DNA of 64,000 nucleotides, taken from assembly GCF_044324875.1 (NCBI RefSeq), contig NZ_CP172185.1; one strand, written 5' to 3'. The position numbers and the translations under genes are program-made. Below are positions 4,509 to 64,000 of this stretch, in pieces (positions within the stretch are counted from its first letter, which is position 1; each line of letters begins with the position of its first letter). Source of the stretch: Escherichia coli (GTDB lineage Bacteria > Pseudomonadota > Gammaproteobacteria > Enterobacterales > Enterobacteriaceae). The notes under the pieces are model-generated. The model had not been told where the DNA came from. It searched no databases and saw nothing but the letters and a program-made list of their open reading frames with translations.

Positions 4509-4599
4509 GTAACCACTATGCACACACAAAAAAACCGCTTGCCATGCCGCAATCAGTCAGGTTACATTTCCGCTGCACCTCATAAAACGGGTGCCGGGA

Positions 4600-4813
4600 T
4601 TGCAACCCCCGCTGACAACTACAGCGCACAACCGCGCCAGCGGTTTTTTTGTGCGTACCGTATCGCCACGTCTTTTTCGCGCCAGAATTATGGCGGGGCG
4701 TATGGGGCCGACTTCGGTCGGGCCGGTTTCTGTAGTTGCCGGTGGTTGCAACCCTGTACGTCTCGCCACCCAGAATTGCAACCTCTGGATGGTGAGTTTT
4801 CAAAACTTGCAAC
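4600..4813. promoter_or_regulatory. Four TTGCAAC sites (one a perfect 10-bp palindrome GGTTGCAACC) upstream of ORF 4829
   Basis: TTGCAAC at 4600, 4746, 4776 and 4807; the last three are about 30 bp apart. Confidence 0.35.
4609..4650 (+). terminator. Intrinsic terminator-like hairpin plus T7 inside the early operon
   Basis: CCGCTG (4609-4614) pairs with CAGCGG (4638-4643), followed by TTTTTTT (4644-4650). Confidence 0.45.
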
Positions 4814-8860: not shown

Positions 8861-9616
8861 TTAACGCGTTTTTTCGCTGCTTTCCACTACCGGGGGATTT
8901 TTCCTCAGTGACTCTCCCTGAAGGACCACTCGGTGTGAGTTATGTACCAGTCTGTCCAGGATGGCATCTGCTGTTGTTGGGTTCTCCATCAGACCATGCC
9001 ATTTATCTACCGGGAACTGGCTTACCACTATCGTGCTGCTTTGTCCGTAACGATCCTCTATGAGCTCCAGAAGGTCATTACACTGGGCGTTACTTAACTG
9101 TTCCAGCCCCAGATCGTCCAGGATTAGAACCTGTATTTTTTGCAACTGTTTCAGATATTTCAGCCAGCTGCCATCAACACGTCCCTGAGCCAGTTGTTCC
9201 AGTAATCGCCCGGTTCTACAGTACCGGACGCTGTGTTTCTGTCGACATGCCTGTTCGCCCAGCGCATTGGCTATCCAGCTCTTGCCACATCCTGTCGGAC
9301 CGGTTATCAGCAGGTTTTTCCTGTGGGTTATGTAGTGGCCGTTCAGCAGTTCTCTCATCTGTTCAGCCCGCAGACCTCTTGAGGCCGGATAGCGCAGCCC
9401 TTCCGGTGTTGCCTGGTATTTCAGGCCGGCATTTTTTCTCAACCGTGCCACACGGCTGTTTTCCCTGCTCAGAAGCTCGTCATCAACCAGCAGCGTCAGC
9501 CTTTCCTCGAACGACAGTTCGTCGTAGGTCTGAGGCGTTTCCCGCTGCCGTATCAGGCTCCCGGCCATCGCCGGGAGTTTCAGTTGGGTCAGTTTGTTTA
9601 ACAGGTTATCACTCAT
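8861..9616 (-). CDS. istB: IS21-family helper ATPase IstB
   Basis: 251 aa from ATG 9616 (AAGGAA RBS); Walker A GPTGCGKSW; DnaA/IstB-like. Confidence 0.85.
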   Translation of the reverse strand: MSDNLLNKLTQLKLPAMAGSLIRQRETPQTYDELSFEERLTLLVDDELLSRENSRVARLRKNAGLKYQATPEGLRYPASRGLRAEQMRELLNGHYITHRKNLLITGPTGCGKSWIANALGEQACRQKHSVRYCRTGRLLEQLAQGRVDGSWLKYLKQLQKIQVLILDDLGLEQLSNAQCNDLLELIEDRYGQSSTIVVSQFPVDKWHGLMENPTTADAILDRLVHNSHRVVLQGESLRKNPPVVESSEKTR

Positions 9617-9632
9617 ACTGTTGTTCCTTCTG

Positions 9633-11168
9633 TCAGTGGTAGTAGCCCGGACCACGCAGGTTTTCATGCTCTGAAGCATATGCCGGATGTTGTTCGCCCT
9701 GGCGGGATAATGGAAGCTCCAGGTTCTCCCGATGGTGACGCAGCAGATTGTCGATAAAGCGTCTGTCAGGGGCGTTATAGTGCAGGGCAACGTAACAGGC
9801 CTTTTCCAGCCGTTCCGGGCCGTATTTTTTCTGAAGTGCCAGCAGCCCCAGAACTGCACGATAAGCCAGTTCCGGATGGGGTTTTGCCTTCAGCATGGAT
9901 TCAACCACCCGGCCTGTGGACGGGCCCGTACGTTTTCCCTGCTCGATCAGGCGTTCCGGTGTCCATGTCCCGTGCTGCCGGTGGCGCTCTGGCATGTGAA
10001 GCGGATTGGTTGTGTGTTTATATTCATGTGTGCTGCGCGGATGTTGCGCCACACACTGCCCCTTGTGCCAGAGCTGTACCACCGACTGCCCCGCCTTCAG
10101 TGACAGACGCTGACCGACCAGTTCGTGTGGAACGGAGTACCAGTGACGGGCATATTCAACGTGGTAGTCAGGGCCAACCTTCACAGCTTTGTATTCCGTG
10201 TATTCATAAGGTGCCAGAGGCAGCGGAGAGAGTGCTGGCGCATCCAGTATGCGGAAGCGTTCTGCACGGGTTTGATTGCCGTACCCCTTCATTGGCCGGT
10301 TATTCATGTCTGTCAGTAACTCCCTAAGGCGCGCATTCAGCGCCCTGAGCGTGTGGAAGGTTTCATTACGGATGCGGGCAAGAAGCCATCGTTCAACGAT
10401 GAGGACGCCGTTTTCTGCTTTTGGTTTATCTTTAGGTTTGCGTGGTCGGGCCGGGATGATAACCGTGCCATAGTGCTCAGCCAGTGCCTGATAACTGTCG
10501 TTGATGACAGGCTCATATCGATCGGCCTTTTTCACTGCGCTTCTGAGGTTATCGGGGATGAGCAGCTTCGGTACGCCGCCCAGGAAGGTCAGGCAACGGC
10601 TGTGGGCATTTAACCATGACATCATGTCCTGACCTTCGCACGCTTCAACGTAGGTATAGTTGGACGCCCCCATTACGGCCACGAAGATTGCCACGCGGCG
10701 TATCTCACCGGTGTCCGGATTAATAACAGGAACCGTAGGACCACAGAAGTCGATAAAAAGCTTTTCGCCGGCACGATGCTCCTGGCGCATGGAGAGACGT
10801 CGCGTTTTTTTCCACTCCCGGTAGCAACGGCAGAAGTGCGAGTATCCCATCGCTTTGTTACCCGCCTGTGCCTTGTATTCCATCCACAACAGTTGCCGCG
10901 TCACACCTGGTTTTCTCATTTCCGTATCGAAGTACAACATGTCAGGCATTACAAGCTCTGATGCAAAGGTGTCTTTGGGCGGAAAAATGAGTTTCTCCAG
11001 CGTGTCATGGGATATATCAGCAGGTAATGGCCATGACAGAGAAGAGGCTTTGAAGCGGGCAAGAACCTCAAAAACGGTTGAGGCGCTGATGTGTAACGTC
11101 AGTCCGATACAACGGTTAGTCAGCTTCTTGTCGAACTTGAGCTGAAGGATCTTAAAACAGGTTTCCAT
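9633..11168 (-). CDS. istA: IS21-family transposase IstA
   Basis: 511 aa from ATG 11168 (AGGAG RBS). N-terminal HTH and DDE core (FIDF ... IPDN ... KAENGV). Confidence 0.85.
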   Translation of the reverse strand: METCFKILQLKFDKKLTNRCIGLTLHISASTVFEVLARFKASSLSWPLPADISHDTLEKLIFPPKDTFASELVMPDMLYFDTEMRKPGVTRQLLWMEYKAQAGNKAMGYSHFCRCYREWKKTRRLSMRQEHRAGEKLFIDFCGPTVPVINPDTGEIRRVAIFVAVMGASNYTYVEACEGQDMMSWLNAHSRCLTFLGGVPKLLIPDNLRSAVKKADRYEPVINDSYQALAEHYGTVIIPARPRKPKDKPKAENGVLIVERWLLARIRNETFHTLRALNARLRELLTDMNNRPMKGYGNQTRAERFRILDAPALSPLPLAPYEYTEYKAVKVGPDYHVEYARHWYSVPHELVGQRLSLKAGQSVVQLWHKGQCVAQHPRSTHEYKHTTNPLHMPERHRQHGTWTPERLIEQGKRTGPSTGRVVESMLKAKPHPELAYRAVLGLLALQKKYGPERLEKACYVALHYNAPDRRFIDNLLRHHRENLELPLSRQGEQHPAYASEHENLRGPGYYH

Positions 11169-11406
11169 AGTGCTCCTGGATTTTCTCTTTCTGGACATTG
11201 ACGTCTCCACTGGTTTAAACACGGCAATGGAGACTGTGGTGAAAAGAGTTAATTCCCGGAGTGACTGGCAGGATGCCAATCAATGATCGGAAGCATGCCA
11301 AATCGTGATCGATTGTGATGCCAAACTGTGATCGGAGATGGATGCCAAATCATGATCGATTCGAATGCCAAACTGCGATCGATTCAGATGCCATTTTGCA
11401 TCAGTC

Positions 11407-53808: not shown

Positions 53809-53896
53809 GGTGAGGTGTCCGAGTGGCTGAAGGAGCACGCCTGGAAAGTGTGTATACGGCAACGTATCGGGGGTTCGAATCCCCCCCTCACCGCCA
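53809..53896 (+). tRNA. serW: tRNA-Ser (GGA anticodon)
   Basis: 88 nt, GGTGAGGTGTCCGAGTGG...long variable arm...GGTTCGAATCCCCCCCTCACCGCCA; anticodon loop cuGGAaa. Confidence 0.95.
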
Positions 53897-53902
53897 TATT
53901 CA

Positions 53903-53938
53903 AAGAAGAGCTCGTACGAAAGTGCGAGCTTTTTTTTC
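53903..53938 (+). terminator. serW terminator
   Basis: GAGCTCGTACgaaaGTGCGAGCTTTTTTTT. Confidence 0.75.
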
Positions 53939-54056
53939 GCATATTGCACTCCAGGGGGGATGAGAAGCCCCGACCGGGGTTCGACAACTGGCGCAGCCAG
54001 TTGGACAGACCACGAACACAGTGAGTGGGCTGCCCGCAGGGCGAGCGAAGCGAGTC

Positions 54057-54118
54057 AATCCCCCCTCACCGCCATATTTAAAGAAAAGCTCGTACGAAAG
54101 TACGAGTTTTTTTCGCAT
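54057..54118 (+). repeat. Degenerate second copy of the serW 3' end plus terminator
   Basis: AATCCCCCCTCACCGCCATATTTAAAGAAAAGCTCGTACGAAAGTACGAGTTTTTTTCGCAT versus 53878-53943, about 90 percent identical. Confidence 0.8.
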
Positions 54119-54203
54119 TTTATCTGCCTGTACGGCAGTGAACGGTATAAAAATCGAGTTTTTCTTTCGGTTGGCTTTCTAAGCTGCCTGTACGGCAGTG
54201 AAC
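54116..54203 (-). CRISPR. Orphan type I-F mini-array: 2 repeats, 1 spacer, no cas genes in window
   Basis: Minus strand GTTCACTGCCGTACAGGCAGCTTAGAAA (54203-54176), 32-nt spacer (54175-54144), degenerate terminal repeat GTTCACTGCCGTACAGGCAGATAAAATG (54143-54116). AT-rich leader-like sequence at 54204-54400. Confidence 0.8.
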
Positions 54204-57044: not shown

Positions 57045-58067
57045 TGTCAGTTATCATCTTCGGTTACGGTTATCGGCAGAACGCCCTGCCGCTGACAAGA
57101 GCTTATTTGCCTGACCAATCTACTCCACATGATAGATAACTATCATTTATATCATTTAGTTAATTAGTCTTTATTTTTCATTATGTTGCAAATAACAAGC
57201 CCGTCAAAAACAGTGATATTAACTACACCATTAACTACACCGCTTCACGAACAATATCGAACAACCGCGAACAAAGATCAACACGCTTTAATCATTATCA
57301 TTTTCCGGCTATCCGTCATGAAGCTGGTGGATGATCTGCGTGGTGATTTCCACCATTCAGAGCAGGGGCGGTCATCATGACCATGCCATAACAAAAACCC
57401 CATATTCGTGGTTTTTCTGTGTCGGGGCTATTCTGCTGTTGCCGTGCTGGTGGATATTCTCCGGTATGCGGCTCCCCATATCGGCATCAGGCCCACCAGC
57501 GTGAAGCGTTTTTCATTTTTCGCGGGTATAAAAAATCGATGGGGCGGGCAGTCCTGAAGACGTCAGGGTACAGAGATTTGACCCGCCCCTCCCTGTGAAT
57601 GAGCACAATAAGTAACCGAAGGCGGAATTCCGCCCTCGGTACTTACATATGAGAAACGATATTTCTTCCACCGATACCCTTTATTTGGGTATCGCGAGTA
57701 AGCCCCAAAATCTGGGTGTTACTCTTACTACCCAAACTACGGGTAGTTTCCGTAGTTTCATGGTCGAGTTGCAAATCTGCAACTCACCCACCAGCCAGCG
57801 CAATGTCGCATTATCAGTCCTCAGATGTGAGGGATGTAGCCAGCTTTTCCCCCAGTGGGGATTATCCAGTTACCGACGGTTTAACCGCCTGTGCCAGCAC
57901 AACGAAAGAATTTGCGGGTAGCTTTAAACTACTCACAACATCCCATCTTACAGGCCGTGCCTTTCTAACTTTTTACAATGCAATAAGTCAGGTAACGCTA
58001 TGCGTTCCACCGTGTACACCGCGCCAGTAAAACCCCCGGATTCGTGGTTTTCCTGAATATCAGGAAT

Positions 58068-58367
58068 CTACCGCCGCAACCGTTCCGGCTTCTTCCACTG
58101 ATAAGTGTTTTTCGCGCTCTCCCTCCGTTGTTGAGAACGGCGACGGTATGCCAGCAACTCAAGGACTCTGGTTCGTATGTTGCGCATATCCACGCCGTTA
58201 AGCTCAATACCATCACGGCGCATCACCTCAGCAACAACACACGCGTAATTTTCGGCTATCACGCTGTCCGGCTGCGTGGCCTCCTGTTCGCCAGCCTGCT
58301 GGCTGATTCCGGTAATACTGCGGATTATCCCGATCGCTTCGGTCTCGGTCATGGTCATGTCCTCCAT
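58068..58367 (-). CDS. Hypothetical small protein at the island terminus (start uncertain: 58367, 58358 or 58352; ORF open to 58442)
   Basis: Frame ...MEDMTMTETEAIGIIRSITG... with basic C-terminus; AAGGAGG and GGAGGA upstream of the internal Met codons; own AT-rich promoter region. Confidence 0.4.
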   Translation of the reverse strand: MEDMTMTETEAIGIIRSITGISQQAGEQEATQPDSVIAENYACVVAEVMRRDGIELNGVDMRNIRTRVLELLAYRRRSQQRRESAKNTYQWKKPERLRR

Positions 58368-58603
58368 AGTGATGGCGGGTCCTCCTTGTGGGGTGCCCTG
58401 CCACGGGGCGGGAGCATCGCGGAAAAAGGCTAGTTTTTGCATTTTTATTCGTTATCACCACCAATGCAATATATTGATATGACTTGATGTTTTATTTTTC
58501 GGTGTCGATTTCGATTGTTTTTTGTTCATCACTGACGCATAACGCCCACCAGCGCAACGCTGAAAGCCAGTCAGTAAACTGGCTTCGGTCATTGTGCACT
58601 ACG

Positions 58604-59188
58604 TTACTTGTCTTTATCCGGCTGAAACTTATCAGGCACATTTCCGGTAGTTTCCATCAGATAATCGGACAGCATTCGCGGGATGTTTTCATCAAGTTTT
58701 GTGCATGCGTTACAGGCTCTGACAACTTCTTTTTTCAGGCCATCCAGCATGGCGGGGGTCATCTGTGGGAAGCTCCTTTGCATAGTAAGCGGGAGGCTGT
58801 CCATGATTGATGAAATCTGTCTCGCCAGTTTTGAAAGCGCGTACATGCAAAACTCTGTATCAATCACGTCACCGCGATCGCGCTCGTTTTTAAGTTCCTG
58901 CGCATCTGCCTGTGCTTTTGTGAGACGGTAGCGTTCGTAATCAATCGTACCGGGCTGCAGATCCGACTCAGCAGCCACGCGCATATCGTCGACTTCCTTA
59001 CGAAGTTTTTCATTTTCAATGTCGGCCTCACGCTGAGCGAACCACTCAATCGCTTTTCCCGTATCAAAAATCGCTTCATTCCCTTTCCCGCCGCCTGATA
59101 TCAGCGGCAGCCCCTGATTTTGCCAGGTGGATATAGTCCGCACATCAACATCAAAAATCTCAGCCAGCTTTTTCTTGTTAACCCTCAC
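58604..59188 (-). CDS. Lambda Nu1-like terminase small subunit
   Basis: 194 aa, GTG start. MRVNKKKLAEIFDVDVRTISTWQNQGLPLISGGGKGNEAIFD...EIENEKLRKEV...DLQPGTIDYERYRLTKAQADAQELKN aligns along its length with lambda Nu1 as I recall it. Confidence 0.85.
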   Translation of the reverse strand: MRVNKKKLAEIFDVDVRTISTWQNQGLPLISGGGKGNEAIFDTGKAIEWFAQREADIENEKLRKEVDDMRVAAESDLQPGTIDYERYRLTKAQADAQELKNERDRGDVIDTEFCMYALSKLARQISSIMDSLPLTMQRSFPQMTPAMLDGLKKEVVRACNACTKLDENIPRMLSDYLMETTGNVPDKFQPDKDK

Positions 59189-59380
59189 ACCAGCATCCCC
59201 TCCAGCAAGAAAATGACCCGTTTTTTTAAGAAAGGATCTTAAAACTGCCTTTTCAGGCGAAACGAAGCCTTATCAGATCCTTTCTCAGAACAAATAAAAT
59301 TCAATATACACAATGACTTACAAAAAAGAAGAACGGATCTGAATTTCCCGTAAAAATTTCATAAGGAGTTGTTTTGCGCG

Positions 59381-59392
59381 AGGTCGCCGCCC
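59381..59392 (-). other. cosN-like site identical to the lambda 12-nt cohesive end
   Basis: Minus strand GGGGCGGCGACCTCGCG contains lambda GGGCGGCGACCTCGCG (16/16). It lies about 190 nt upstream of the Nu1-like start, as in lambda. Confidence 0.75.
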
Positions 59393-59432
59393 CGTAACGG
59401 GTCCACATGCCGGAAAGGACCCATAAAAAATA

Positions 59433-59458
59433 AAGCCGGACTACTCCGGCTTCGTCTC
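59433..59458 (-). terminator. Intrinsic terminator after the ProQ/FinO-like gene
   Basis: Minus strand AGCCGGAgtagTCCGGCT followed by TTATTTTTT. Confidence 0.65.
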
Positions 59459-59475
59459 TTCATGTGGTCAGGGTT

Positions 59476-60060
59476 TTATGCTTTCCGTACGCCCGAGGAA
59501 CTGGCATTTTTCAGAATAATATTATGCCCTGCTGGTGGCTTACCGTTATGCTTATTTTCTGCCTTCATGTTTCTGCGCTCCTGCTGTTTTTTCTTCATCT
59601 CATCCAGTCGCTTCCCCGCGTTCAACTGGTGCTCCTGTGTCACCTCCCCGCACGGATGGCCTTTCAGGTCGTAACGCACGCCACCAGCCATCAGGGAACG
59701 GTAATATCGCACTGAACTGACATAATACGCCAGCGTTGCGCGAAGCGCTCCCTGACCTAATGAAATACCTCTCGCAGTAATATCCTCCATCAGGTCATCA
59801 AATATGCCAACCTTAAGCGGTCTGGGCGATTCCTGGCTGAAAAGTTCAGGCCAGAGCGCGGCAAGGCGTTCAACGCGTCTGATATTTTTTTTCCGGCTCT
59901 TTTCTGATTTGCGTTTTGCTGCCGTCTTCTGTTGTGTTTTCTGCTCGCGGCTCTGCTTTTGCGCTGGTGTGGTTTTATCCGGCTGTTCAGCCTCCTGCGT
60001 CTTTTTCTGCGGTGTGCCGTATATGCCTTTTGGTTTTCGGTTAATGGTCAGCTTTGTCAT
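59476..60060 (-). CDS. ProQ/FinO-domain RNA-binding protein
   Basis: 194 aa from ATG 60060 (GGGGGAGAA RBS). LAALWPELF...PLKVGIFDDL...ALRATLAYYVSSVRYYRSLMAGGVRYDLKG is the FinO/ProQ signature as I know it. Lys-rich tails. Confidence 0.7.
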   Translation of the reverse strand: MTKLTINRKPKGIYGTPQKKTQEAEQPDKTTPAQKQSREQKTQQKTAAKRKSEKSRKKNIRRVERLAALWPELFSQESPRPLKVGIFDDLMEDITARGISLGQGALRATLAYYVSSVRYYRSLMAGGVRYDLKGHPCGEVTQEHQLNAGKRLDEMKKKQQERRNMKAENKHNGKPPAGHNIILKNASSSGVRKA

Positions 60061-60139
60061 GTTCTCCCCCTTTGTGCTGTTCCACCAGCGGCATCTGCTA
60101 CCCCGTGTCGCTCCCGCTGGTGTCGTGTTTCCCCGCCTG

Positions 60140-60460
60140 TTAATAACCGTCATCATTTACGTTATCAGGGTAATCACGCCATATTTCATCAGTAAGCGAC
60201 GGTAGCCCCATCTGTTGTATTGTCCTGTCTGCGGCCCTTCTGACTGCGTGAACATCATAACGGTTTTCAGGTATCGGGCGCTTTGCCTTCCTGATACATT
60301 CCCTTGCTCTCATTGCCGCAAGTTCTCTGTGCCTGTCTTCCTGAAGAGTAATCATCACATCCTGCCACCTTCTGGCAGCCCGTCGCCACAGTCCCCTGCT
60401 CTCGAGTTCTTCTGCTGTCGCGTCGCTTATTGTCCGGTTCTTCGGTGTGCTGTTGTTCAT
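60140..60460 (-). CDS. PerC/Pch-like small transcriptional activator (tentative)
   Basis: 106 aa; AEELESRGLWRRAARRWQDVM resembles the PerC-family core. Confidence 0.4.
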   Translation of the reverse strand: MNNSTPKNRTISDATAEELESRGLWRRAARRWQDVMITLQEDRHRELAAMRARECIRKAKRPIPENRYDVHAVRRAADRTIQQMGLPSLTDEIWRDYPDNVNDDGY

Positions 60461-60477: not shown

Positions 60478-60888
60478 TCAGAAGGGTATATCATCTCCGT
60501 AGGGGCCATCGCCTCCCGCTGGTGGCTTATTCCCCTGTGCGCCTGTGGTTTTGCGTGTTTTTCCGCCCGGTCGCACTGTCCGCGCACTGATTACGCTGTC
60601 TGCGATAACCTGCCAGCCCTGCCGCGTTTCCCCGTTCTGTCCGGTCCACTGGCTGACCTGCATGTTACCCGCCACGCTCAGGAGTTCACCCTTGCGGTGC
60701 TTTGCCAGTGCTTCGGCCTGTCTGCCAAACGCCAGCACAGATAACCACATCGTCGCCGTTCCGTCATCTGCCTGGCTGCACGGAAGGGGGACCGCCATAC
60801 TCGCCATCGCCATTTGTGTCCCCTTGCTGGTGGTCTTTAACTGCGGGTCAGCCACCAGCCGCCCGTAAGCCGCTATCTGTGCTGTCAT
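60478..60888 (-). CDS. ssb: Single-stranded DNA-binding protein
   Basis: 136 aa, OB-fold N-terminus, Gly/Pro-rich linker, acidic tip DDIPF. Confidence 0.85.
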   Translation of the reverse strand: MTAQIAAYGRLVADPQLKTTSKGTQMAMASMAVPLPCSQADDGTATMWLSVLAFGRQAEALAKHRKGELLSVAGNMQVSQWTGQNGETRQGWQVIADSVISARTVRPGGKTRKTTGAQGNKPPAGGDGPYGDDIPF

Positions 60889-61428: not shown

Positions 61429-63177
61429 CTATAAAAACGCGTCGCAGTCGTCTGTTGTTGTCACGTTGGTTTGCGTAACCCCTTTAATCCTGCGCGTTAT
61501 ATATTCATGTCCGTAAACTTTCGCCGCTGGCTTCATGGCCTTGCTGAACTCAGCCACGTTCAGCGGTTTGCTCCTGCCTGCGTATGCCATAAACGCCAGA
61601 TAGACGCGGTACAGGCTGTTTCTGGTCGTGTACTTCACGGAATCGCCACCGCCACCCATCATCAGGCCACGTGCTTCCTCCAGAAAATTCAGGAACTGGC
61701 AAAACTCAATAACCGGATCCGTTTGCTGCTTTATCGCCAGTGCTTCATCACCGTCACGCTGTTCCAGTAGTAAAGCCCGCGCCTTTTCAGGGTCTGCAAA
61801 GTTCGCCAGTAATCGGCGGATAATGACGGGGATTTCAGCCGCAATCCTTTCCGGTAGCTCCCTGTCTTTTTCAGCCTCACTGACGATATTGTCGAAACGA
61901 AAAATCACGCGACGACGTGCCACACCTCCGGCCCGTTCGGTGAATATCATCGGGTTATTGTTGGTCGCCAGCACCACCGCCCTGATTACAGCCGTGAAAC
62001 GCTTTTCGTATTTCGGGTTAATTTCCACGGGGTCACCGCCCGTGATTTTCTTGATGCCCGTTCCTTCGCCTGTATATTTCGGCTGGTCTGCCAGGACGAT
62101 AAGACGACTCCCGACAACCTGCGCACGCCCACCAGCATCATCAAGCGATGTCATCTCAGCACTTACCGTGTTCTGTTTCCCTGCCAGAAGGCTGGCTATG
62201 TGTGTGAATGTACTTTTACCGCTCCCGCCGTCTCCGGTGGCCTCAATAAACATCTGCCAGTCGTACCGGTTCGCCATAATCATGTACAGCGCGGCACATA
62301 TACGCATCATCTTGCGCGGGTCTTTTCCGGCTGCGTGCTCAAGCCATTTATGAAAGTTTGGCGCGTTATCGCGGATGTTCTCCCCAGGTGCTGGTGGCGT
62401 GTACTCAATGCCGTTGTGCGTGGTGATCCAGTTCTCCGGCGTGTGCGGGGAAAATTCCCCCGTTTTCAGGTCAAGCGCACCATTGGCGAACGGCAGCAAA
62501 TCGCCGGACGGCTCGCCCATTGGTTCGGCAATAACTTTTAACGCTTCCACGGCGTTACTGATTACGCGCTTGCTGAAAGTGGCCCTGTGCTCTGAATAGA
62601 TCGCCACCATTTCGCGGCTCAGTTCCATTGTGCTGACCGGACACCATACCCCGCCGCGCCATACGTGAACGATTTCACTTTCCGGATGCACACAAACGCC
62701 ATCAAATCGACCAGCAAGCATCTGTGCGCGCTCACTGTCTGCCATTTGTGCCAGTTGCGTATTTTTCTGCTCCGGCATGGTAAGCCCTGCAGCAATATTT
62801 TCACGCTCAGCATTCAGATAACGCCGCCAGTTTTCACACTTCTGACCGTGCATTCCTTCGGGGTAAAAATTTGCGTCCTGTACGCCAGCCGCCGCCAGCT
62901 TCTGACCAATCGCCTTTATCATTACTGGCGCAAGATATCCGGCCCTGAATATACGCACGGATTTTCTGCCTTCCGGCACAATTTGCAGCTTATCCAGTTC
63001 GGATAACTGCTGCTCCCCAAGCCACACAGGAGGCTCATTATCTCCGGCCATACGCGCGTCATGTTCCTGCCATTGTTTCGCGTGTGCCCAGGCATCACTA
63101 CCCGCAAAAATAATGACTTCAGTTCCTTTGTGTTTTATGCCGCGTGACTGCAGTTTTACGTTCGGTGCCAGTTTCAT
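61429..63177 (-). CDS. Primase-helicase (P4 alpha / D5-type, SF3 helicase C-terminal domain)
   Basis: 582 aa, Walker A GDGGSGKST, Walker B-like LIVLADQP, N-terminal primase-like region. Confidence 0.8.
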   Translation of the reverse strand: MKLAPNVKLQSRGIKHKGTEVIIFAGSDAWAHAKQWQEHDARMAGDNEPPVWLGEQQLSELDKLQIVPEGRKSVRIFRAGYLAPVMIKAIGQKLAAAGVQDANFYPEGMHGQKCENWRRYLNAERENIAAGLTMPEQKNTQLAQMADSERAQMLAGRFDGVCVHPESEIVHVWRGGVWCPVSTMELSREMVAIYSEHRATFSKRVISNAVEALKVIAEPMGEPSGDLLPFANGALDLKTGEFSPHTPENWITTHNGIEYTPPAPGENIRDNAPNFHKWLEHAAGKDPRKMMRICAALYMIMANRYDWQMFIEATGDGGSGKSTFTHIASLLAGKQNTVSAEMTSLDDAGGRAQVVGSRLIVLADQPKYTGEGTGIKKITGGDPVEINPKYEKRFTAVIRAVVLATNNNPMIFTERAGGVARRRVIFRFDNIVSEAEKDRELPERIAAEIPVIIRRLLANFADPEKARALLLEQRDGDEALAIKQQTDPVIEFCQFLNFLEEARGLMMGGGGDSVKYTTRNSLYRVYLAFMAYAGRSKPLNVAEFSKAMKPAAKVYGHEYITRRIKGVTQTNVTTTDDCDAFL

Positions 63178-63473
63178 TTTTTACCCCTGAATCCGTTAAT
63201 CATGGTTTTCATCTTCTGAATATTGGCGCGTGCTTTCTCCCTGCTGGTGGGCACGTTACGCGGTACGGCCTGCACAAGAGAAAAATCACGCACAAACTGA
63301 TAAACAGGCATCACGCAATCATATTCGTAACCTTCATGGCGGTAGGTGATGCGCCGTTCTGCCACGCCTTTAATCGTTACCGTACCGCCGTAGTTATCAC
63401 GGAAAATATAGCCGGGACGGATTTCAGGCCGAGCGAGGCCGCTGGCAGTAAAGCCAGAATTTTTCTTTTTCAT
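63174..63473 (-). CDS. Hypothetical protein
   Basis: 99-aa ORF overlapping the primase start. Confidence 0.4.
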   Translation of the reverse strand: MKKKNSGFTASGLARPEIRPGYIFRDNYGGTVTIKGVAERRITYRHEGYEYDCVMPVYQFVRDFSLVQAVPRNVPTSREKARANIQKMKTMINGFRGKK

Positions 63474-63503
63474 GGTTTTATTTTCCTGTCAGTGATTCCG
63501 GCT

Positions 63504-63677
63504 TTATTCCGGCGCGAATACAGGCTTCAGAAAAAAAGCCAGAGAACCAATAACCTCATTATTTCTAAGGCGGCATTGCGATTTCACTTTCCCTTTATCC
63601 AGAAATATCAAAACGCGCCCCGTATAATCAGATGGCACATTAAGCACTACAGGTAAGTGCGCTTCATGATTATTCAT
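63504..63677 (-). CDS. Hypothetical small protein
   Basis: 57 aa from ATG 63677 (GAGGTGG RBS), overlapping the upstream stop. Confidence 0.35.
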   Translation of the reverse strand: MNNHEAHLPVVLNVPSDYTGRVLIFLDKGKVKSQCRLRNNEVIGSLAFFLKPVFAPE

Positions 63678-63987
63678 GGCTAACCACCTCCTGGAATTTT
63701 CTTCTGTAACGCGCCTCTGCCACATATTCAGCATAGTCCGACGCAATATTGAGAATATCGCTACCCGTTCCTGAATGTTCGGCGGTTTCCAGTAAAAAAC
63801 ATGCAGCTTTTACCATGTCAGCAACACATAACAGCGCAATATCTGTATCTTCCGGTGTGCCATCAAATTCCTGTTTCAGGGCATTAAAACGATCATCACG
63901 CATAACCCCATATTCACAATCAGCAATCAGGATGGCTTTGGCCTCATTCAGTGCCATATTAGCGGTAAGCTGTGCGTAGGCCAGCAA
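63670..63987 (-). CDS. Hypothetical protein
   Basis: 105-aa ORF in the operon direction. Confidence 0.4.
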   Translation of the reverse strand: MLAYAQLTANMALNEAKAILIADCEYGVMRDDRFNALKQEFDGTPEDTDIALLCVADMVKAACFLLETAEHSGTGSDILNIASDYAEYVAEARYRRKFQEVVSHE

Positions 63988-64000
63988 ATGCGGGATTATT

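Follow-up and report, generated by a model that had tools for sequence, protein, structure and literature searches.

A cos-type phage-inducible chromosomal island of Escherichia coli with a chimeric Nu1-type small terminase and no large terminase

The stretch of DNA considered here, referred to below as the window, comprises 64,000 nucleotides of Escherichia coli contig NZ_CP172185.1 (assembly GCF_044324875.1), and part of it belongs to an element that, judging by its gene content and ends, is a cos-type phage-inducible chromosomal island (PICI) that has integrated between clpS and cspD. Its packaging module consists of a lambda-type cos site and a gene for a full-length homologue of Nu1, the small terminase subunit (TerS) of lambda, and lacks a gene for the large subunit (TerL, gpA in lambda). 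The module is a mosaic of a phage cassette and a satellite-only C-terminal domain: TerS is a chimera in which cosB and the DNA-binding and dimerization half are a recent acquisition from a phage-21-like prophage and the C-terminal half is of a kind confined to PICIs. The interpretation favored here, at a probability of about 0.6, is that the island TerS binds its own R boxes and through its C-terminal domain recruits the gpA-type TerL of a helper phage, with cutting at cosN and packaging of concatemeric island DNA. The features of the module are as follows, with helix-turn-helix abbreviated as HTH and open reading frame as ORF.

59432-59453, minus strand: strong hairpin of intrinsic-terminator type directly upstream of cosQ
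59416-59422, minus strand: cosQ, GGGTCCT, at -29 to -23 from the nick
59399-59393, minus strand: left nick flank CGTTACG, the same as in lambda
59377-59392, minus strand: cosN, with the 12-nt cohesive end GGGCGGCGACCT at 59392-59381 and then CGCG
59229-59340, minus strand: cosB, with R3, an I1-like site, R2 and R1
59340-59330, minus strand: R3, at +53 to +63 from the nick (lambda, +54 to +64)
59320-59308, minus strand: I1-like site for integration host factor (IHF), at +73 to +85, the position of I1 in lambda and 21
59285-59275, minus strand: R2, inverted, at +108 to +118 (lambda, +109 to +119)
59239-59229, minus strand: R1, at +154 to +164 (lambda, +156 to +166)
58604-59188, minus strand: TerS ORF, 194 aa, GTG start at 59188
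58889-59188, minus strand: TerS codons 1-100, Nu1 winged-HTH DNA-binding domain and dimerization helices, phage-derived
58604-58888, minus strand: TerS codons 101-194, satellite-type C-terminal domain

A single copy of the lambda 16-mer GGGCGGCGACCTCGCG is present in the window, at 59377-59392 of the minus strand; the preliminary description of this DNA had recognized there the first 16 nt of lambda, though with coordinates (59381-59396) that are off by 4 nt. In shuffled sequence, a mean of 0.07 matches to the 16-mer is expected with up to two mismatches. The alignment with lambda and phi80 proposed in that description was carried out anchored on the nick; it took in the genome ends of phages lambda, 21 and phi80, together with cos regions from Gifsy-1 and Escherichia phage PhiR5_1, and it brought out a complete cos in the lambda register. 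The CGTTACG flank, the 12-nt cohesive-end sequence and the CGCG are all exact lambda matches, the spacing from cosQ to the nick is that of lambda, 21 and phi80 (cosQ being taken from the annotation in the phage 21 record), and an I2-like segment, TTATGAAAxTTTT, is present. With cosQ, a cosN giving 12-nt ends, and R3-I1-R2-R1 at lambda spacing all found at the sequence level, the 16-mer is not due to chance. That the cosB sequence differs from lambda, as had been remarked, is borne out by the R boxes, which are AGATCC(G/T)TTCT, the Gifsy-1 type, as against GTTTCC(G/T)TTCT in lambda and CATGTCGG in phage 21; the architecture is nonetheless identical. A search of the whole island for a second cos, as is present in the PICI EcCICFT073, found one cos only.

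Counted from the nick, the TerS gene starts at +205 and its lambda counterpart at +191, so the earlier figure of about 190 nt, as in lambda, was roughly right. The protein matches the Pfam family Phage_Nu1 with an E value of 2.7e-75 over profile positions 1-161 of 164, in keeping with its earlier description as full length, and also matches phrog_57. Its N-terminal part matches the lambda TerS 1-98 structure (PDB 6hn7_B, E 1.7e-40), with 1j9i and 7lxs also matched. An AlphaFold2 (AF2) model has a winged HTH, then five helices and then a disordered tail, with a predicted local distance difference test score (pLDDT) of about 90 at residues 1-60, and Foldseek gives template modeling (TM) scores of 0.86-0.90 to solved DNA-binding domains, which are its only matches in the PDB; no solved structure spans the Nu1 C-terminal domain. 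By Pfam, PDB and Foldseek the protein thus has the N-terminal winged HTH and central dimerization helices of the Nu1 family. The C-terminal domain is homologous to the self-assembly and gpA-binding region of Nu1, retains the (I/L)P..L..Y(L/I) pattern of the lambda and PhiR5_1 C-terminal classes, and carries an extra tail, ETTGNVPDKFQPDKDK.

Because the window stops inside the island, features of the whole element were read from the copy in E. coli TUM1886, where a 31-kb locus contains it complete and 99.9% identical to the window. Five gpA proteins, used as tblastn queries on the window and this locus, gave no gpA/TerL or remnant below E 0.1, in agreement with the earlier statement that no such homologue follows the Nu1-like gene. 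Nor does the complete island have a TerL, portal, capsid, tail or lysis gene by annotation, Pfam and tblastn for gpA. A TerL gene lying with head genes outside the window, which the preliminary description had said would make this a prophage fragment, is accordingly lacking in TUM1886. Gene A follows nu1 in every 181-183-aa phage homologue whose gene neighborhood was examined, and the 193-200-aa relatives of the island TerS, in PICIs at several attachment (att) sites, are never beside TerL. At nine PICI loci, likewise from several att sites, no TerL comes after the 180-194-aa TerS. After TerS there come, as had been noted, a single small ORF (94 aa) and the island end, with about 0.8 kb of non-coding DNA leading to the att repeat beside clpS.

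The preliminary description had supposed that TerS directs packaging specificity to the island's own cosB. The satellite part of that account stands, since the element has the PICI gene set and att repeats and no TerL, and is not a prophage fragment; the ownership of cosB does not. cosB and codons 1-100 are a phage cassette, matching at 98-100% identity a lambdoid prophage of the phage-21-like kind with a gpA of its own, so what was taken for the island's own cosB is really borrowed. Codons 1-100 are 100% identical in nucleotide sequence to phage contig L021 and 100% identical in amino acid sequence to P0051, a 182-aa TerS with a phage-21-type C-terminus; an overlapping gpA gene follows, its product 92% identical to phage 21 gpA over the 164 N-terminal residues on the contig. 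Nucleotide identity along the window changes sides as follows.

About 59370 down to about 58920: 98-100% to phage contig L021, 46-78% to PICI L011
About 58920 down to 58521: 42-62% to L021 (80% in the crossover window), 96-100% to PICI L011

The breakpoints are cosN and the conserved codons for AQADAQELKN. At the latter, Nu1 is classically divided into a cosB-binding and a gpA-binding part, and in the AF2 model the junction is at a helix end that forms the domain boundary. Over 1.3 kb, the donor-type prophage is found at no less than 98.6% identity in 14 complete E. coli genomes; several of these come from chickens, as do the island carriers.

The other half of the protein has a different affinity. 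All PICI TerS aligned are at least 70% identical in amino acid sequence to the island protein over residues ~101-194 and have the tail ETTGNVP(E/D)K, and phage TerS are at most 54% identical. As a homologue search with the C-terminal 93 aa alone returned nearly only partial proteins, residues 101-194 were instead compared exhaustively, by phmmer, with 1.84 billion representatives. Three PICI-type representatives were found at 65-80% identity, the remaining matches were at most 53% identical and at most 71 bits (a few short fragments being slightly higher), and among these representatives no non-PICI match of near full TerS length extends into the tail. A dN/dS (ratio of nonsynonymous to synonymous substitution rates) of 0.05-0.29 indicates that the PICI TerS C-terminal domain is under purifying selection. 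The region is thus homologous to Nu1 and constrained, yet of a satellite-only class with no adjacent TerL gene; as far as these alignments and searches reach, it is a discrete class common to PICIs whose N-termini are Nu1-type and to those whose N-termini are not. What it is joined to varies, as set out here.

Most PICI TerS: recognition helix RTIERWQ (21-type), R boxes CATGTC
TerS P0045: recognition helix RTIQNWQ (lambda-type)
Island TerS: recognition helix RTISTWQ, R boxes AGATCC
TerS of the PICI EcCIIHE3034: different HTH altogether, different cosB

Across phages and PICIs recognition helix and R box co-vary, QN going with GTTTCC in lambda, ER with CATGTC in the 21-type, and both ST of the island and TA of Gifsy-1 with AGATCC, which fits TerS reading the adjacent cosB.

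The favored interpretation rests on a module that has the cis requirements of lambda and the DNA-recognition subunit and is short of the enzyme alone, and on a constant domain that is the homologue of the gpA-binding region of Nu1 with its (I/L)P..L..Y(L/I) pattern kept. Induction by a lambdoid helper would lead to excision of the island and replication from its own primase and iteron origin to give concatemers. A TerS dimer would bind the three R boxes of cosB through the Nu1-type winged HTH, IHF at I1 probably being involved, and the C-terminal domain would bring in helper gpA-type TerL for nicking at the lambda-identical cosN and packaging into helper heads. Genes like those for gpE and gpD are absent, unlike in the sibling islands, so multimers in full-size heads are expected, at about four 10.3-kb units per lambda-sized head as estimated from the packaging size limits of lambda.

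Several observations weigh against this interpretation. No helper was found in the 64-kb window, where the sole prophage is P2-like, and the donor-type prophage is in none of the five complete carrier genomes. To the C-terminal domain of any phage TerS, that of the island is no more than 54% identical, so that the TerL partner is solely a predicted one. No sigma-70-like promoter was found between the terminator-like hairpin that precedes cosQ and TerS; if the hairpin terminates, it separates the upstream operon from TerS and leaves TerS expression unexplained. The hairpin is also found before cos1 of EcCICFT073 (L022 ~2500-2525) and the cos of EcCIIHE3034 (L020 ~5990), is missing from the lambdoid phages compared, and raises the question of how TerS, or the packaging redirection protein Rpp of other islands, gets transcribed. 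Finally, TerS-encoding EcCIIHE3034 was transferred at very low frequency upon induction of resident prophages (PMC6092414, Table 1).

Among the alternatives, the one that survives best, though it is unlikely, is that the island TerS makes no TerL contact of its own and acts in the manner of Rpp, forming mixed oligomers with helper TerS via its N-terminal half while helper TerS contacts TerL. On the same PICI backbone TerS takes precisely the place of rppA, the comparison with Rpp proteins advocated earlier shows the DNA-binding domains to be homologous (30% identity, E 2e-7 with RppA; E 0.008 in the PDB search), residues 1-100 with the dimerization helices are 100% identical to those of a phage TerS, the C-terminal domain is outside all phage classes, and Rpp is known to form heterodimers with TerS residues 1-98 (PMC6739421). 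However, the likeness to RppA and RppC is limited to the DNA-binding domain. Rpp proteins are of 144-153 aa, with a DNA-binding domain and dimerization helix and no Nu1 C-terminal region, and the 194-aa island protein, unlike them, keeps the full-length Nu1 C-terminal region (Pfam to 161 of 164), under purifying selection and with its sequence pattern. Murialdo and Feiss attribute the dependence of Rpp on TerS precisely to the missing C-terminal domain (PMC9026076).

It is doubtful that the island engages in plain cos piracy, in which the TerS of a helper from the phage-21-like donor lineage reads the same cosB, and island TerS is dispensable and mainly competes or interferes. That cosB is ~100% identical to the cosB of a real prophage lineage with its own TerS and TerL, the one present in the 14 genomes noted above, speaks for it, as does the finding that a cloned cos alone supports some lambda-mediated transfer (PMC6092414). 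Against it stand the absence of that prophage from all five carrier genomes, the intact and constrained TerS gene, and the retention of TerS by PICIs through cassette swaps, which argues that it is needed. Decay of a lambdoid prophage to cos and a functionless nu1 by deletion of gene A, to which the phage origin of cosB and of the N-terminal half of TerS might point, is highly improbable given a full PICI gene set with att repeats, a cos-TerS-94-aa arrangement repeated in many PICIs at different att sites, a dN/dS well below 1, and no other lambdoid gene or gpA remnant; the negative tblastn with five gpA proteins led us to reject a deleted-prophage origin.

Recruitment of helper TerL by a Nu1-type TerS may be one instance of a wider arrangement, which we put forward tentatively and at less than even odds. 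In it the constant, satellite-only C-terminal domain would capture lambdoid TerL, perhaps across several gpA classes, or poison helper TerS assemblies, and the cassette of cosB and DNA-binding domain would be repeatedly swapped with the phages met, by crossovers at cosN and the AQELKN codons. On this view the same slot would have given rise to Rpp by truncation, and the present island would be freshly re-targeted. As to the helper, phages like PhiR5_1 provide a lead: PhiR5_1 has the closest TerS overall (70.7%) and the closest C-terminal class (54%), and its spacer between cosQ and cosN is of the type in these PICIs, from which that of the island itself differs by one base.

With regard to the rest of the element, it is 10,348 bp long between 25-nt direct repeats that have one mismatch, as read in TUM1886. 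Between clpS and the end of the window, 7 kb of sequence has 99.9%-identical counterparts in three complete E. coli genomes; two further genomes match 93% of this length at 99.2%. The gene order in TUM1886 is clpS, the 94-aa ORF, TerS, ProQ/FinO, PerC, single-stranded DNA-binding protein (SSB), a small ORF, a D5-type primase, DUF4222, small ORFs, an Icd-like gene, AlpA and tyrosine integrase, followed by yljB-cspD. Island features in the window outside the packaging module are these.

57218-57242: att direct repeat ATTAACTACACCATTAACTACACCG, the island end beside clpS; its partner is 10,348 bp off, beside the integrase and outside the window
57243-58067, minus strand: non-coding tail, with 92-100% matches to PICI L011 and 96% to EcCIIHE3034
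57640-57615, minus strand: strong terminator-like hairpin inside the non-coding tail
58068-58352, minus strand: 94-aa ORF, phrog_1561 (E 3e-49), no Pfam family
59476-60060, minus strand: ProQ/FinO-domain gene, PF04352 (E 2e-26) and RefSeq annotation, accessory
60140-60460, minus strand: PerC-family regulator, PF06069 (E 9.5e-27), accessory
60478-60888, minus strand: SSB, PF00436
61191-61420: iteron cluster immediately 3' of the primase gene, with GGTAGAGG-type repeats in both orientations
61429-63177, minus strand: D5_N/DUF5906 primase-helicase (PICI pri-rep), Pfam
63174-64000, minus strand: DUF4222 gene and small early ORFs, Pfam and annotation; the island runs on past the window

Held against the properties by which PICIs are defined (PMC6092414; SatelliteFinder, PMC10085698), the TUM1886 copy has a tyrosine integrase (Phage_integrase and Arm-DNA-bind_3) adjoining the partner of the att repeat, an AlpA-type regulator next to int (PF05930 Phage_AlpA, E 3.8e-16), a primase-replicase and then the iterons, and a length of ~10 kb without phage structural, lysis or TerL genes. 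The iteron cluster is a putative replication origin whose location fits the rule for PICI origins given in PMC6092414. The 94-aa ORF is conserved after TerS or Rpp in the EcCICFT073/EcCIIHE3034 PICI family. At or just before its start, some 75 bp at 58373-58448 have 91-94% matches in many E. coli genomes, where they are unannotated, and may represent a promoter or small RNA conserved among PICIs or prophages; an Rfam scan of the island found no known RNA. Across 59476-60460, PerC and ProQ/FinO replace the lambda gpE-like capsid, gpD-like decoration and 137-aa genes that sister PICIs have at the same att site, a module swap inside one PICI lineage. PerC regulators are common in Gram-negative PICIs, and repression of the enterocyte effacement locus (LEE) has been reported for a PICI PerC-like protein (PMC11773190). 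The Icd-like gene of TUM1886 (L001 18677-20110) is annotated as 477 aa with no Pfam domain, the Icd-like ORFs of sister islands being of 65-67 aa, and may be a fusion or have an accessory or defense function.

Elsewhere in the window there is a P2-like prophage (~600-35100) with Cox, replication gpA, portal and gpP terminase on the minus strand, and with P2-family capsid, tail fiber, tape measure and gpD; at ~8861-11279 it has an insertion-sequence-like insertion with an ORF for an rve/Mu-transposase C-terminal domain. As a helper for the island this prophage was rejected as implausible, its cos and terminase being of a different type. Within it, at 4575-4773, Rfam matches to the isrK Hfq-binding RNA (4575-4650) and the C4 antisense RNA (4686-4773) adjoin; the pair looks like a P1-type immI-like module, and the PICI also has an Icd-like gene. 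Between serW and clpA, at 53809-54203, tRNA-Ser(GGA) precedes an RtT-like element (53940-54074) and then a lone CRISPR-DR4 repeat (54176-54203), which looks like an orphan remnant because IHE3034 has a complete type I-F array with cas1f in this position; TUM1886 has a separate integrase island there.

E. coli PICIs encoding TerS have been reported before (PMC6092414), terS is a core PICI marker in SatelliteFinder, and terS without terL is the textbook definition of a PICI (PMC10085698). Possession of terS and lack of terL in PICIs, E. coli examples of which were listed in 2018, and the cos backbone of EcCICFT073 are thus already known. In the searchable literature, in which not all journals are covered, no published description was found of a Nu1-type PICI TerS with a canonical cosB or of the chimeric, cassette-swapping structure, and it is the mosaic of phage cassette and satellite-only domain that is new. 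The sole experimentally worked-out redirection mechanism for Gram-negative cos PICIs is that of Rpp (PMC6739421, PMC9026076), and the TerS-encoding E. coli PICIs have been catalogued and left unexplained. They amount to a natural experiment in which one satellite-specific C-terminal domain is borne on at least four DNA-binding specificities, with matching cosB where compared, and the cassette of the present island is essentially identical to that of a living prophage lineage. Which part of a Nu1-type TerS engages TerL, and with what breadth, whether satellites evade or track helper specificity through cassette swaps, and how Rpp is related to TerS are thereby made testable, with the phage-21-like lineage and PhiR5_1-like phages as candidate helpers or donors. 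For annotation, a lone 'terminase small subunit' beside a lambda cos is to be seen as a PICI marker rather than prophage debris.

Packaging redirection by PICIs had been invoked in the preliminary description as an analogy, a reading that understates the relationship as the element is itself a member of the EcCICFT073/EcCIIHE3034 family. For CFT073 the comparison was with a 50-kb stretch containing the 3' end of EcCICFT073 and helper prophage 4. The 3' order in EcCICFT073 is capsid, decoration, 137-aa ORF, terminator, cosQ-cosN (cos1), rppA (144 aa), an inverted cos2, 93-aa ORF and att, and it shares with the island the backbone logic of int/AlpA, primase, SSB and PerC as well as the placing of a packaging-specificity gene directly after cos, then the 93/94-aa ORF, then att. 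Its terminator-cosQ-cosN segment is 90% identical to the window with an identical cohesive end, and its 93-aa ORF is 69% identical to the island 94-aa ORF. It differs in having a 144-aa Rpp without the Nu1 C-terminal region where the island has a full-length 194-aa TerS, a cosB without lambda-like R2 and R1 where the island has the canonical R3-I1-R2-R1, and a second, inverted cos2 (L022 3262-3338) and gpE/gpD-like genes where the island has a single cos and no capsid genes. Its cos1 is experimentally functional with lambda and phi80 (PMC6092414, PMC6739421), and multimers in full-size heads have been reported for it (PMC6092414).

EcCIIHE3034 was marked by Fillol-Salom et al. and described as TerS-encoding, with no helper found for it (PMC6092414). 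It shares the clpS/cspD site, 89% nucleotide identity across the part from int to SSB, and cosQ-cosN, and its TerS C-terminal domain is 79% identical to that of the island, with the ETTGNVP tail in both. In contrast, its TerS has an N-terminal HTH that is not Nu1-like and its cosB is another; gpE-like capsid, gpD-like decoration and 137-aa genes stand where the island has PerC and ProQ/FinO, and an inverted second cos-like copy lies between terS and the 93-aa ORF (L020), the island having a single cos.

The pac-type Staphylococcus aureus pathogenicity islands (SaPIs) likewise supply just a small terminase that steers the helper large terminase to satellite DNA (summarized in PMC6739421). Their packaging, however, is headful from pac, their TerS family is unrelated, and a distinct protein, Ppi, blocks the TerS of the phage, whereas the island is cos-type with a TerS of the Nu1 family, and no Ppi homologue was identified in it. 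Capsid-forming PICIs are characterized by their own capsid, portal, head-tail connector and TerL, none of which is present here, and P4-like satellites by a P2-type cos and psu, sid and delta genes, whereas the island has a lambda-type cos and no such genes in its annotation. There remain the lambda/21 terminase hybrids of Frackman, Siegele and Feiss (1984-85), to which PMC9026076 refers, which reportedly assigned cosB specificity to the N-terminal part of Nu1 and gpA binding to its C-terminal part, and in which crossovers in the conserved middle of Nu1 are said to yield functional chimeras. The island chimera differs from these in being natural, with one phage half and one satellite-only half and no cognate gpA in cis, and it resembles them in that its junction falls within that same conserved middle segment.

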